Source of the DNA: a virus
Lineage: Duplodnaviria > Heunggongvirae > Uroviricota > Caudoviricetes
DNA length: 17,319 nt
Virus record (IMG/VR): IMGVR_UViG_2547132281_000005
Strand: one strand, 5' to 3'
Below, piece after piece: positions 1,296-7,571 of the stretch. Numbering within the stretch: position 1 is the first letter of the stretch; each line of letters begins with the position of its first letter. The translations under genes were made by a program, and so were the position numbers. The notes under the pieces were generated by a model. That model was given only the letters and a program-made list of their open reading frames with translations. It ran no database searches and had not been told where the DNA came from.

Positions 1296-1964
1296 ATGGT
1301 GAAATCAATGAAAAAAAACACAGATGATGGGGCTAAAATTTACACACCACTTACCCTAAAGCTTTATGACTGGTGGGTTTTGGGAGTATCAAATCGGCTT
1401 GCATGGGGATGTCCTACAAAGGAACACCTTCTTCCACACTTTCTGGAACATGTAGGTAACAACCATCTGGATATTGGTGTTGGAACTGGGTTTTACCTTA
1501 CTCACGTACCTGAGAGTAGTCTGATATCTTTAATGGATTTGAACGAAGCTAGCCTGAACGCGGCATCTACAAGGGCTGGGGAATCAAAAATTAAACATAA
1601 AATTAGCCATGATGTTTTTGAACCTTATCCCGCGGCGTTACATGGTCAATTTGATTCCATTTCCATGTTTTACCTTCTTCACTGCCTGCCTGGAAATATA
1701 TCTACAAAAAGCTGTGTAATACGCAATGCGGCGCAGGCCTTAACTGACGATGGAACTCTATACGGAGCCACAATTCTTGGCGATGGAGTTGTGCACAATA
1801 GCTTCGGTCAAAAACTGATGCGCATTTACAATCAGAAAGGCATCTTTTCAAACACAAAAGATTCCGAAGAAGGCTTAACACATATACTCTCAGAGCATTT
1901 CGAGAATGTTAAAACCAAGGTTCAAGGTACTGTAGTAATGTTTTCCGCTTCAGGGAAAAAATAG
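1296..1964 (+). CDS. Class I SAM-dependent methyltransferase (about 220 aa)
   Basis: Motif I LDIGVGTGFYL, acidic residue after beta-2 (MDLN), and later FDSISMFYLLHCLP and LTDDGTLYGATI blocks typical of the Rossmann-fold methyltransferase layout. Alternative start ATG at 1308 has GGTGA 5 nt upstream. Stop TAG at 1962-1964. Confidence 0.7.
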   Translation: MVKSMKKNTDDGAKIYTPLTLKLYDWWVLGVSNRLAWGCPTKEHLLPHFLEHVGNNHLDIGVGTGFYLTHVPESSLISLMDLNEASLNAASTRAGESKIKHKISHDVFEPYPAALHGQFDSISMFYLLHCLPGNISTKSCVIRNAAQALTDDGTLYGATILGDGVVHNSFGQKLMRIYNQKGIFSNTKDSEEGLTHILSEHFENVKTKVQGTVVMFSASGKK

Positions 1965-1968
1965 CATC

Positions 1969-2185
1969 CAACCGCAGCACGTTCTTGCTTAAGACGAGCT
2001 GCGGCATAATCCCAATGATTACTCCCTGACAGGGTTCGTAGGCCACTCAATATCAGGTGCAGTTGATGTATCAACACGGTTCAGCAACACCCGATACTTT
2101 TTCCAGGCTTCCAGCAATGAGGTTTCTTCCTCCGTTGCAATTTCCAGATCTGCAGCATCCTGAAGCGGCGCAATATGCTCACTGG
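1969..2185. repeat. Direct repeat copy B (tfa 3' end plus downstream hairpin)
   Basis: Partner of 919-1135; contains hairpin 1972-2004 immediately after the convergent stops of the methyltransferase and tfa. Confidence 0.7.
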
Positions 2186-2603
2186 CTACCTGCATCAGGT
2201 TGTTTTTTGTTTCTTCCGCCTCCCGGATCCGGAACAGTTTTTCTGCTTCCGTATCCTTCACCCAGGCTGTGCCGTTCCACTTCTGAAACTCCCCTTCCGG
2301 CGATAACCAGGTAACATTTTCCGGTAACGGACCGAGTTCAGAAATAAATAACTCGTCCCCTGACGCTACGTCATAAACCGTTTTACCCCGATGGTCTTCA
2401 ACGAGATGCCACGATGCCTCATCACTGTTGAAAACAGCCACAAAGCCAGCAGGAATATCTGGTGGTGCAATATCGGTACTGTTTGCTGGCAGACCTGTAT
2501 GAGGCGGAATATATGCGTCACCTTCACCAATAAATTCATTAGTTCCGGCCAGCAGATTATAAATTTTTATGGTCCGTGCTTGTTCACTCATTCTGAATGC
2601 CAT
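2019..2603 (-). CDS. tfa: Tail fibre assembly protein Tfa (194 aa)
   Basis: Same length as lambda Tfa (194 aa) and conserved Tfa C-terminal block. Its ATG (2603-2601) overlaps the stop of the upstream fibre ORF in a TAATG arrangement, as in the lambda stf-tfa pair. Confidence 0.85.
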
Positions 2604-3550
2604 TATGCAAGCCTCACAATATAGTTAAATGCGATGTTTTTGACGGTGTTTTCCGCGTTACCCGCAGCGTTAACGGTGATGGTGTGTCCATGTGAACCAA
2701 TCGCAACGGAGTGCGTATGCGCACCAATACCTACAGTATGTGCATGTGCGCCAGAACTTGCTGCAGTACCAGACAGCGAGTGGGTATGAGCACCTGCTGA
2801 CTGTGTCTGAATACGTTGATAATACGATCTATAGGAAGAAGTCTCCGGGCTTACTTGATACTGTGAATTCTGGACATAAGTGAACCCACCGCCATCATAA
2901 AATGCTAACGCAGAACCGCCGCCTCCTGGCCAACGAATACCATTACCATGAGTATGAACACCGGCAGACCCCGTAGAGCCACTCAGACTGTGCGTATGCG
3001 CCCCGGTGTTATTCGTGGATTTAGTGCCGTAATCAAACGACGATGTGGTTTTCGTCCCCAAATCCGTACTGGATGCGCTGGCGCTGTGGGTGTGCGATTT
3101 AATGCCGTCCTGTTCCTGAGACAATACGGCCCGGCCACTGGCGGGTTTGCCCTTGATTGTCCAGCCGCGCATATCTGGAATAACACCTGAAGGATAGGCA
3201 ATAGCCAGTTTCGGATATGCTGCCTTATCAAACGTCTGCCCCTGCATGATTGCATAACCTGCAGGTGGTGTATCTGATGGCCACGGCAGCGGAACACCTG
3301 GCGGAAACGCTTCAATATTTGCCGAGCCGTCAAATTTTACGCCGTTAATTGTCCTTGCAGTTTGCAATTTGGTTGCTGTGCTTGCATTAGTCGAGGCTAA
3401 GGGCTTTTTTAACCTCGCATCCGCGCCTGCGGTAACACTGAATGAGCCATTCGGCCTGTTCTTCAGTGCATGGGGGGTGCTGGTACCAGTCTGACTTAAA
3501 TGCATGAGAATACCGCTCGTGCGTGTGGGCAAGAACGGTCGAATTATCAT
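2603..3550 (-). CDS. stf: Side tail fibre protein, C-terminal fragment (lambda orf-314-like), N-terminally truncated
   Basis: 315-aa ORF rich in G/S/T/A with repeated GAHTHS / HxH motifs and a [13 protein letters not shown] block typical of Stf C-terminal regions. The frame hits a stop at 3602-3604 just upstream and the ATG at 3550 has no RBS, so the N-terminal shaft portion is missing. Confidence 0.6.
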
Positions 3551-4976: not shown

Positions 4977-5326
4977 AGATTAGCTTTTTTTTGAATGTTT
5001 GGAGAGTAAAATGTTAGAACCACCAAAGAGTTATAATGAAATGTTGCCTATGCTCCATAAGGCGACTTTTATTACTACATTTATATTTTACCTATCATTA
5101 GTCATTTATGGCTACATGCCATTGGTTGGCATTAATGCCAAGTATATCCCCCCCGTTAAAGACTACGAGGAATTTATTAAATGGATATTAACCTTTGGCA
5201 TATTACCAATTGCATCTTCAGTTTTTTGGTCAGTAATTAGTGGAGCTTTAGATCTACATAATAATGTAGCAAAAATTATTGGAATAAGGAAGATGTGGGA
5301 TAGTCATTTAATTATTAAACCATTAG

Positions 5327-6521
5327 GGAAGGTGCGAATAAGTGGGGAAATTCTTCTCGGCTGACTCAGTCATTTCATTTCTTCATGTTTGAGCCGATTT
5401 TTTCTCCCGTAAATGCCTTGAATCAGCCTATTTAGACCGTTTCTTCGCCATTTAAGGCGTTATCCCCAGTTTTTAGTGAGATCTCTCCCACTGACGTATC
5501 ATTTGGTCCGCCCGAAACAGGTTGGCCAGCGTGAATAACATCGCCAGTTGGTTATCGTTTTTCAGCAACCCCTTGTATCTGGCTTTCACGAAGCCGAACT
5601 GTCGCTTGATGATGCGAAATGGGTGCTCCACCTTGGCCCGGATGCTGGCTTTCATGTATTCGATGTTGATGGCCGTTTTGTTCTTGCGTGGATGCTGTTT
5701 CAAGGTTCTTACCTTGCCGGGGCGCTCGGCGATCAGCCAGTCCACATCCACCTCGGCCAGCTCCTCGCGCTGTGGCGCCCCTTGGTAGCCGGCATCGGCT
5801 GAGACAAATTGCTCCTCTCCATGCAGCAGATTACCCAGCTGATTGAGGTCATGCTCGTTGGCCGCGGTGGTGACTAGGCTGTGGGTCAGGCCACTCTTGG
5901 CATCGACACCAATGTGGGCCTTCATGCCAAAGTGCCACTGATTGCCTTTCTTGGTCTGATGCATCTCCGGATCGCGTTGCTGCTCTTTGTTCTTGGTCGA
6001 GCTGGGTGCCTCAATGATGGTGGCATCGACCAAGGTGCCTTGAGTCATCATGACGCCTGCTTCGGCCAGCCAGCGATTGATGGTCTTGAACAATTGGCGG
6101 GCCAGTTGATGCTGCTCCAGCAGGTGGCGGAAATTCATGATGGTGGTGCGGTCAGGCAAGGCGCTATCCAGGGATAACCGGGCAAACAGACGCATGGAGG
6201 CGATTTCGTACAGAGCATCTTCCATCGCGCCATCGCTCAGGTTGTACCAATGCTGCATGCAGTGAATGCGTAGCATGGTTTCCAGCGGATAAGGTCGCCG
6301 GCCATTACCAGCCTTGGGGTAAAACGGCTCGATGACTTCCACCATGTTTTGCCATGGCAGAATCTGCTCCATGCGGGACAAGAAAATCTCTTTTCTGGTC
6401 TGACGGCGCTTACTGCTGAATTCACTGTCGGCGAAGGTAAGTTGATGACTCATGATGAACCCTGTTCCATGGCTCCAGATGACAAACATGATCTCATATC
6501 AGGGACTTGTTCGCACCTTCC
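5327..6521 (-). mobile_element. IS5 insertion sequence, complete, 1195 bp
   Basis: Terminal inverted repeats GGAAGGTGCGAATAAG (5327-5342) and CTTGTTCGCACCTTCC (6506-6521); 4-bp direct target duplication TTAG at 5323-5326 and 6522-6525; contains the transposase ORF. Confidence 0.95.
5473..6453 (-). CDS. insH: IS5 transposase InsH (326 aa)
   Basis: Protein from [36 protein letters not shown]... matches IS5 transposase as I recall it; the track ORF extends 12 codons upstream to 6489. Confidence 0.9.
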
Positions 6522-6911
6522 TTAGCAAAAATTGCAGGCGTTACGAGAAAATTAACTACTGATGAATCTCACAAGGTAATGAGTAAACTGTATTACCCAG
6601 AAGTTAAAGAGTTAAAAGACAAACATTACGTTGAACTTTTCTGGAACAAAGTTTATTACTTTTGGGTTTTCTTTGAACATACAGTAATCGCATTTGTTAC
6701 TATTTTAATAATAAGTATCGCCAAATTAACAAATATATTCTCTGTTACTGGCTCTTTAATTAATCTTTGGTTGTGGATTATTTCTCTTGTCGCATTTGAC
6801 TTCCTTATTTTCATAGCATCAGTTAAACCAAGAACAGAAAGCCAAGTAAGACAAATACCTGATAGCAAAATAAAAGAATTCTTTAACAATAACAATATTT
6901 TTTAAACGAGG

Positions 6912-7571
6912 TTGATTTTGAATTACAAAATAAATGGAATAAACATACGTTCAGAAAATGCAGCGAAACCGCACACTATGCCATCTAACTATCTCTGTAA
7001 ACAGATTGAAAGCACTAATAAAAATGGCAATGCCCTTGATTTTGGATGTGGAAAACTTAGATATTCAGAACAATTAGTAAATAAATTTGAAACTGTGACA
7101 TTTTTAGATTCCAGAAGACAACTAGAAAGAGTGCAAATTATCAGAGGTGTACAAACCACGATTCCAGATTACGTGATAAATAACTATAAGAATGCTAATA
7201 TTGTTTCTTATGAAAATATAGATAAAATAACAAATCATTATGATTTCATACTTTGCGCAAACGTGCTTTCCGCAATTCCATGTGAATCCACAATTCACAA
7301 AGTCCTCAGTGCGATTAGAGAATTATTAAAGAGTGATGGTGAAGCACTGATTGTCAATCAATACAAAAGTTCTTATTTCAAGAGGTACGAGAGCGGTATT
7401 AAACATTTGCATGGGTATATATACCAAAACTCTCGTAATGCTTTCTACTATGGTTTATTAGATGTGGATACTGTAAGTAAAATATGCTCAGATAATAATT
7501 TAGAAATAATAAAATCATGGAGCAAAGCAGGTAGTTCATATGTGGTTGTTGGTAAACATATACATATTTAG
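6912..7571 (+). CDS. TehB-like class I SAM-dependent methyltransferase (about 217-219 aa)
   Basis: Motif I ALDFGCGKL, acidic LDSR, YDFILCANVLSAIP and LKSDGEALIV blocks resemble TehB-type methyltransferases. Likely start is TTG 6918 (GAGG 6908-6911, 6-nt spacer) or TTG 6912; begins 7 nt after the membrane-protein stop. Confidence 0.7.
   Translation: MILNYKINGINIRSENAAKPHTMPSNYLCKQIESTNKNGNALDFGCGKLRYSEQLVNKFETVTFLDSRRQLERVQIIRGVQTTIPDYVINNYKNANIVSYENIDKITNHYDFILCANVLSAIPCESTIHKVLSAIRELLKSDGEALIVNQYKSSYFKRYESGIKHLHGYIYQNSRNAFYYGLLDVDTVSKICSDNNLEIIKSWSKAGSSYVVVGKHIHI

Follow-up and report, generated by a model that had tools for sequence, protein, structure and literature searches.

The stretch of DNA analysed here (the window; 17,319 nucleotides, IMG/VR record IMGVR_UViG_2547132281_000005) is part of an Escherichia coli lambdoid, Qin/Rac-like prophage integrated at ompW, and it encodes two small class I S-adenosylmethionine (SAM)-dependent methyltransferases, MT1 and MT2. 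In our best joint explanation, to which we assign a probability of about 0.7, these are two unrelated cargo genes that were juxtaposed by an internal deletion of the prophage, and MT2 is the partner of a YmfE-type membrane protein whose gene is broken by IS5 in this copy. Both genes are known and widespread prophage passengers with counterparts in E. coli K-12; the observation of two methyltransferases is correct but ordinary. The value of the finding is indirect: it ties the YmfD family, to which MT2 belongs, to YmfE, for which an anti-phage activity was recently reported, and suggests a two-gene system that is testable in K-12.

The open reading frames (ORFs) of MT1 and MT2 are real genes, and identical proteins are present in public databases. 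Both proteins pass the Pfam gathering thresholds of Methyltransf_12, Methyltransf_23 and Methyltransf_11, and MT1 also passes that of Methyltransf_25. Both have the seven-stranded alpha/beta methyltransferase fold and the SAM-binding residues of class I (Rossmann-fold) enzymes, which are invariant in the family alignments (D59/G61/G63/G65, D81 and D106 in MT1; D41/G43/G45, D64 and E99 in MT2). In MT1, motif I (LDIGVGTGFY), the acidic end of beta-2 (LMDLN), the HD closing beta-3, FDSISMFYLLHCLP and LTDDGTLYG are all invariant in an alignment of 18 family members. In MT2, D64, E99, YDFILCANVLSAIP and LKSDGEALIV are invariant or almost so among 58 sequences, and motif I reads LDFGCGKLRY, in which the GCGKL loop provides GxG followed by K and not a full GxGxG. 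The motif order that the original prediction had ascribed to both proteins thus applies to MT1, with its GxGxG and acidic beta-2 end, and is to be corrected for motif I of MT2. Likewise, the predicted coordinates stand for MT1 (1296-1964), whereas for MT2, predicted at 6912-7571, the TTG at 6918 is the preferable start, as it fits RefSeq WP_001373963.1 and the N-termini of the homologues. The structural model of MT2 is confident and, together with the invariant SAM-binding residues, suggests that both proteins are catalytically competent. Members of both families are uniformly about 215-225 amino acids long. Two complete methyltransferases were therefore correctly recognised, and the outcomes that had been named as fatal to the prediction, namely fragments of larger enzymes or lost SAM-binding residues, were looked for and found in neither protein. 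MT1 and MT2 are without significant similarity to each other (BLASTP E=2.9). They are clearly different sequences, as had been claimed, and paralogy was rejected, no likeness being detectable past the common fold.

Neither protein contains a (D/N/S)PP(Y/F/W) or PC(Q/H) DNA-methyltransferase motif. Against all PADLOC models, including those of DNA methyltransferases, neither gave a significant match, the sole weak one being to mad2 (E 1e-4 to 9e-3). The statement that a DNA methyltransferase signature is absent is therefore confirmed, and assignment to the DNA methyltransferases of restriction-modification (R-M) systems was rejected for both. Membership in a known defence system was also rejected, PADLOC v2 giving no significant match for MT1, MT2 or YmfE. 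Promoter and terminator scans around MT1 and MT2 found sites no more numerous than expected by chance. Literature searches for the RefSeq accessions of MT1 and MT2, and for a two-gene defence system composed of a methyltransferase and a transmembrane protein, returned nothing.

The closeness of MT1 and MT2 in the window (within 5 kb) is an artefact, because a prophage segment of about 38 kb has been deleted. E. coli 14EC017 (NZ_CP024134) carries the same prophage in essentially complete form. Positions 1-3389 of the window correspond to 2761032-2764420 of this genome with 100% identity, and positions 3388-17319 correspond to 2802343-2815075 with 99.9% identity. Compared to 14EC017, the window has lost about 37.9 kb, a piece that starts halfway through a tail-fibre gene and reaches up to a small gene closely preceding rem and hokD; the left edge of this deletion is marked by a tail-fibre assembly gene and the truncated tail-fibre gene (2019..3550). 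In 14EC017, MT1 (2762327-2762995) and MT2 (2804674-2805327) are found about 42 kb apart. The prophage is indeed degraded, as originally stated, and the two genes do lie within 6 kb in the window, but this proximity is secondary. In the RefSeq annotation of 14EC017, the left part of the prophage consists of a Rha regulator, tail-fibre remnants, MT1, tfa, the tail fibre and the segment that is deleted in the window. The right part starts with rem, hokD, a hypothetical protein of 231 amino acids, MT2, a convergent SMEK-domain protein and DUF977, and continues with replication and immunity genes, dicB, exonuclease, xis, int and ompW. The exact arrangement of the window was found in no complete E. 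coli genome of the collection, where no single place covers at least 80% of it.

MT1 is an intact allele of ybcY (b0562), a pseudogene of the DLP12 prophage in K-12. The two are 99% identical at the nucleotide level over 655 nt, and both are flanked by tail-fibre-assembly genes, with tfaD-ybcY-tfaX as the order in K-12 and tfa fragment, MT1, tfa as that in the window. Unlike the K-12 copy, which is annotated as a pseudogene, MT1 is an intact ORF of 222 codons whose product is identical to a common RefSeq protein. Its membership in the YbcY family (phrog_2132) follows from a full-length match (E 4e-157; residues 5-222 against profile positions 1-218) and from the tail-fibre-distal cargo position that is shared by 14EC017, K-12 and phage ev243. 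In ev243, MT1 lies directly beyond the tail genes on the opposite strand, and on its other side a small tail-fibre-assembly remnant is followed by OmpT, an alpha/beta hydrolase and the integrase. Such a setting is characteristic of cargo regions for lysogenic conversion. MT1 was found in 15 sequenced lambdoid phages and, at a minimum of 95% identity, in 71% of the complete E. coli genomes (3831 of 5426), with up to 4 copies per genome. With such a prevalence any prophage cargo gene will often co-occur with MT1, and the claim that two methyltransferase genes are unusual is not supported.

Among solitary chromosomal homologues of MT1 in Salmonella and Enterobacter (56-65% identity) no conserved neighbours were found, and a homologue in Testudinibacter sits at the edge of a mobile element. 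In none of these three genera did the neighbours give a clue to the function of MT1, and searches for functional literature on ybcY found none. The solved sequences closest to MT1 are carboxyl/O-methyltransferases: juvenile hormone acid O-methyltransferase (JHAMT, 7ebs), which the profile of the MT1 family matches at E 2e-6, with corresponding class I Rossmann core and motifs I to post-III, and UbiG (E about 1e-3 to 2e-3, Rossmann core only). However, the alignment to these JHAMT/UbiG-type O-methyltransferases covers only the SAM-binding core (about 110 residues), and a conserved N-terminal segment of the MT1 family (YTPLTLKLYDWWVL..N..AW.C) has no counterpart in them. Therefore, the assumption of a common substrate is unsupported. 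Among the curated NCBIfam families, MT1 had no match anywhere near a cut-off. Judged from its sequence, MT1 is best read as a stand-alone small-molecule (or RNA) methyltransferase. Its gene belongs to the tail-fibre-distal cargo and lies on the strand opposite to that of the tail genes.

MT2 forms the downstream cistron of a ymfE-ymfD operon. It shares 68% identity with YmfD of the K-12 prophage e14 (E 4e-113), whose residue numbers are offset by +4 against those of the 217-aa MT2, and the YmfD-type signatures ENAAKP, LDFGCGKLRY, CxNVLSAIP, NQ..SSYF and YYG, which are invariant or nearly so in 58 members, are all kept. Among sequenced phages MT2 had no match. The preceding gene, on the same strand, is intact in 14EC017 (locus L001:7624-8319), where it encodes a protein of 231 amino acids with 60% identity to e14 YmfE. 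In the window this gene is present and is split at codon 105/106 by an element (5327-6521) that we take to be IS5 from its recognised terminal repeats and its length, named without a search of an insertion sequence database. The repeats GGAAGGTGCGAATAAG / CTTGTTCGCACCTTCC were read from the sequence at the ends of the element, which has GGAAGGTGCG... at one end and ...CGCACCTTCC at the other. It is flanked by a TTAG target duplication (5323-5326 and 6522-6525), its GC content is 53% compared to 29-32% in the flanks, and the match of the window to 14EC017 falls into two pieces at this position. The 3' fragment of the ymfE-like gene lacks the transmembrane helices TM1-TM2 and the residues H83, R93 and D97, which are invariant in the family alignment. 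The original prediction had overlooked that MT2 belongs to a two-gene operon, in which it follows a gene interrupted by IS5. The positions of all features are listed in Table 1.

Table 1. Features of the window, with position, strand and basis of the assignment.
Feature	Position	Strand	Basis
MT1, ybcY-family class I SAM-dependent methyltransferase, 222 aa, WP_000240999.1	1296..1964	+	Pfam, phrog_2132, RefSeq annotation in 14EC017
Tail-fibre assembly gene	2019-2603	-	ORF list and 14EC017 annotation
Truncated tail-fibre gene, 315 of ~1008 codons	2603-3550	-	Intact 14EC017 copy has 3027 nt
Deletion junction	3388..3389	.	Two matching blocks to 14EC017, 2-nt overlap
ymfE-like gene, 5' fragment, codons 1-105 (Kunado-family inner-membrane protein)	5011..5326	+	Window sequence compared with intact 14EC017 gene
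IS5 (presumed), 1195 bp; transposase 5473-6489	5327..6521	-	Ends, TTAG duplication
ymfE-like gene, 3' fragment	6526..6905	+	Translation corresponds to residues 106-231 of intact protein
MT2, ymfD-family class I SAM-dependent methyltransferase, 217 aa, WP_001373963.1	6918..7571	+	RefSeq, homologue N-termini
SMEK_N-domain protein, 299 aa, putative nuclease-type stand-alone defence candidate	7886..8785	-	Pfam, NCBIfam, PADLOC

Because IS5 splits the ymfE-like gene, the ymfE-ymfD module of the window is most probably inactive and MT2 an orphaned remnant; in the source strain the system would not function and expression of MT2 would be uncertain. As a dead allele, the window copy is unsuited to phenotyping. 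The uninterrupted pair was found in 150 of the 5426 complete E. coli genomes, 14EC017 (positions 2803966-2805327) included, and the IS5 insertion in none of those inspected among these 150. In the related strain 14EC047 an IS1 is located somewhere in the region. The module shares its two-gene order and tight spacing with ymfE-ymfD of e14, and both are AT-rich prophage cargo beside a defence-type gene (Lit in e14, the SMEK-domain protein here). Without IS5, the island at about 4500-9000 has a GC content of 29-33%, compared to 47% in the remaining prophage. The two modules differ in location, e14 carrying its copy at the int-proximal end and the window between hokD and the replication genes of a prophage integrated at ompW. 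Moreover, unlike that of e14, the module of the window is a divergent allele that is disrupted by IS5 and probably dead.

In the tellurite operon tehA-tehB, the gene of an integral membrane protein is followed by that of a small class I SAM methyltransferase, and the order of the ymfE-ymfD module is superficially similar. The original prediction had named TehB and UbiE as possible subfamilies and proposed that both methyltransferases were selected for resistance. MT1 and MT2 would then be TehB/UbiE-like resistance or detoxification enzymes that methylate a toxic metabolite, metalloid or antibiotic. The small-molecule-type class I fold of both proteins is consistent with this proposal, as are the small-molecule O-methyltransferases that are the nearest solved relatives of MT1 and the Pfam TehB match of MT2, which exceeds its threshold (24.4 vs 20.4 bits). 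This match, however, is weaker than those of MT2 to generic methyltransferase families and does not extend beyond the Rossmann core (profile positions 29-136 of 193). For the NCBIfam TehB models NF008405 and NF008992, which have cut-offs of 218 and 303 bits, the scores of MT2 were 28.0 and 29.0, and MT1 had no match. For UbiE/UbiG there was no NCBIfam match of either protein, and the UbiG matches in the PDB (E about 2e-3 for MT1 and 9e-3 for MT2) are confined to the core. The PDB sequence search gave core-level matches only, led by JHAMT for MT1 and PKMT2 for MT2. Membership in TehB, UbiE/UbiG, BioC, NodS or CpaM was rejected, every NCBIfam score being far under its cut-off. The two genes are unrelated, differ strongly in prevalence and occupy separate cargo loci that only the deletion has joined. 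Nothing connects them in function, so common selection is not supported. We therefore regard a shared role in resistance as very improbable.

The reading of MT2 as a partner of YmfE rests on a conserved gene pair. In a scan of one genome per species, a YmfE-type ORF was adjacent and on the same strand in 25 of 25 YmfD loci, three of which are short E. coli-like contigs. The pair was observed in Microbulbifer, Colwellia, Marinobacter, Pseudomonas and Providencia, and the loci span at least five phyla (Gammaproteobacteria, Planctomycetota, Acidobacteriota, Dormibacterota and Gemmatimonadales), with identities of 29-40% in the last four. The customary order is YmfE followed by YmfD with a gap of 2-15 nt or a 17-nt overlap, and in nearly all loci the starts and stops of the two genes overlap or are at most 15 nt apart. 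Two Planctomycetota loci and one Acidobacteriota locus have YmfD ahead of YmfE, and there too the genes abut. Since the adjacency outlives inversion of the gene order across phyla, there is strong evidence that YmfE-type and YmfD-type proteins work together.

A profile search with YmfE in 1.84 billion representative proteins returned 220 clusters, nearly all of them single-domain proteins of 218-250 amino acids, and one sampled member again has a YmfD-type methyltransferase after it. Cluster P0418 (395 amino acids) combines the YmfE-type membrane domain with a C-terminal TIR domain (Pfam TIR_2, E 2e-20). The gene of this fusion starts 2 nt after that of a YmfD-type methyltransferase with 41% identity to MT2 (L045:2059-3968, JGI metagenome 3300082054), and a run of small ORFs that are phage-like in look adjoins the pair. 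When 23 diverse YmfE proteins were compared with Pfam at E values up to 1, only scattered chance matches appeared. Invariant polar residues of the family include H83, R93 and E156, the last of which lies inside a transmembrane helix. At another locus (L054:1303-2621), a membrane protein gene with weak likeness to YmfE (profile E 4e-6) runs into the beginning of the gene for a 208-amino-acid protein that is not a methyltransferase; the latter has no Pfam match and carries an R-x4-H motif (LRNFTAHES) reminiscent of HEPN domains. YmfE-like membrane proteins may thus pair with differing cytoplasmic partners. At 86-100% identity, the E. coli-type module is present on short contigs (L020, L021, L022) filed as 'Candidatus Scatousia', an uncultured Haemophilus metagenome-assembled genome and a Streptomyces genome. 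These contigs are most likely enterobacterial contamination of the respective assemblies.

In Gammaproteobacteria, the YmfE-YmfD pair is repeatedly found next to defence genes. It follows directly after Hachiman (HamA/HamB) in Pseudomonas sp. PICF141 and directly precedes Hachiman in Amphritea. The loci adjoining Hachiman in these two genera are L010:386-5334 and L028:9319-14310. Hachiman and the pair may travel together or cooperate. In another Pseudomonas, Lamassu LmuA/LmuB lies beside the pair, and in P. psychrophila the pair is adjoined by a type II C5 DNA methyltransferase, the single match in PADLOC scans of 20 large neighbours. In e14, both Lit and intE adjoin ymfE-ymfD, the pair of Providencia is located at the end of a P2-like prophage, and the pairs of marine bacteria are found among transposases, recombinases and toxin-antitoxin genes. 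Such surroundings indicate phage conflict, in Gammaproteobacteria at least. Nevertheless, the association with defence is not universal, because the large neighbours tested in the loci of distant phyla gave no PADLOC match and because, over all 17 loci, the Pfam families met most often in neighbouring genes are those of ordinary regulators and enzymes, for example LysR.

Recently, deletion of hns in BW25113 or MG1655 was reported to unmask a defence encoded by e14, in which Lit acts against T4 and ymfE against T5-like phages (bioRxiv 10.64898/2026.09.05.749240, preprint, September 2026). When cloned together with its native promoter, ymfE confers protection on a strain devoid of any cryptic prophage; YmfE, which was named Kunado, leaves adsorption unblocked, and superinfection exclusion at the stage of DNA injection was proposed by the authors (bioRxiv 10.64898/2026.09.05.749240). 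The text of the preprint makes no mention of ymfD or of a methyltransferase (bioRxiv 10.64898/2026.09.05.749240). The methyltransferase appears to be dispensable for the anti-T5 phenotype of e14. Other work describes the e14 genes, including ymfD and ymfE, as SOS-inducible (PMC11228462), reports less early biofilm formation upon deletion of ymfD (PMC3105296) and, with the Keio ymfD knockout, did not single out ymfD as an enzyme of N6-methyladenosine (m6A) formation in mRNA (PMC12096079). As the island of the window is AT-rich, it is plausible, by analogy to the report on e14, that it is likewise silenced by H-NS.

The gene of a YmfD-type methyltransferase such as MT2 is normally co-transcribed with that of a YmfE-family inner-membrane protein with four helices, which lies directly upstream. 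We infer that YmfD works with YmfE or tunes it, for example by methylation of YmfE itself or of a membrane- or phage-derived substrate. Potentially, YmfD might serve as a regulator, stabiliser or antitoxin-like partner of YmfE; a free-standing detoxifying enzyme is not what this arrangement would suggest. An uninterrupted form of the window allele would presumably have the activity of e14 YmfE, and the substrates envisaged here for both methyltransferases are likewise presumptive. Tentatively, and at somewhat less than even odds, Kunado could belong to an ancient two-gene system in which it is obligately paired with a dedicated methyltransferase of the YmfD family. If so, this would be an anti-phage or superinfection-exclusion mechanism that depends on a methyltransferase and is not of the R-M type, for which no precedent has been described. 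YmfD could then regulate the membrane protein, act as its antitoxin or modify an incoming phage component. The link between YmfD and YmfE could redefine the newly named defence system and give a first function to the uncharacterised YmfD of K-12.

Modification of the envelope by genes that prophages carry near their attachment sites is a known theme. The pair might accordingly serve a housekeeping-type modification of the membrane, such as methylation of lipids or of the envelope that requires a membrane scaffold, in which case the anti-phage effect would be a by-product and the defence contexts would reflect mobility only. The occurrence of the pair in Planctomycetota, Acidobacteriota, Dormibacterota and Gemmatimonadales, away from PADLOC-matching neighbours among those tested, and the housekeeping-type families that are commonest around the 17 loci would agree with such a role, and the polar residues H83, R93 and E156 of YmfE could form a catalytic or substrate site. 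It is a possible role especially in the distant phyla. On the other hand, the TIR fusion and the sufficiency of YmfE for protection agree poorly with it, and in Gammaproteobacteria the pair repeatedly has Hachiman, Lamassu or Lit right beside it. That YmfE alone protects while adsorption is unblocked also argues against a surface change that depends on the methyltransferase (bioRxiv 10.64898/2026.09.05.749240). Overall, we consider the housekeeping explanation unlikely and prefer the reading of YmfD as a partner of YmfE in phage conflict.

The convergent neighbour of MT2 (7886-8785) lies in the same AT-rich island and matches SMEK_N at its N-terminus (Pfam 1.6e-22, NCBIfam 4.9e-31) and, with the N-terminus only, the Argonaute-associated REase model Aga_REase-PNTD1-PNTD2 of PADLOC (1e-20); its C-terminal half of about 180 amino acids is without domain assignment. 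The original prediction had seen no adjacent restriction gene. This needs qualification, as MT2 does have a nuclease-like neighbour, but one that is unlinked to the MT2 family elsewhere. SMEK_N, a nuclease-type domain, occurs together with short prokaryotic Argonautes (PMC10810196), and in view of this domain, the PADLOC match and the adjacency of the two genes it might be supposed that they form an R-M-like pair in which the methyltransferase protects self nucleic acid. Such a pair is extremely improbable. MT2 has neither DNA-methyltransferase motifs nor a target-recognition domain or significant PADLOC match, and the two genes are not co-transcribed because they are convergent. SMEK homologues were absent from all other YmfED loci examined, whereas YmfE is present in all, and on this ground the pair was rejected. 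The SMEK_N protein may be an independent, stand-alone defence gene outside the YmfED module.

In Qin/Rac-like prophages, the cargo of the slot between hokD and DUF977/replication genes that holds the island (window 4113-9460; loci L046-L049) is variable. K-12 Qin has relBE, ydfV and flxA there, CFSAN061770 has a DUF4209 protein of 595 amino acids, and an O145:H28 strain has the Paa adhesin; in a BL21 derivative the slot is empty. Further to the right (11206-13500), annotation of the matching 14EC017 region places a Qin-type immunity region with dicA/dicC-like genes, ydfA-ydfB-ydfC, dicB and ydfD.

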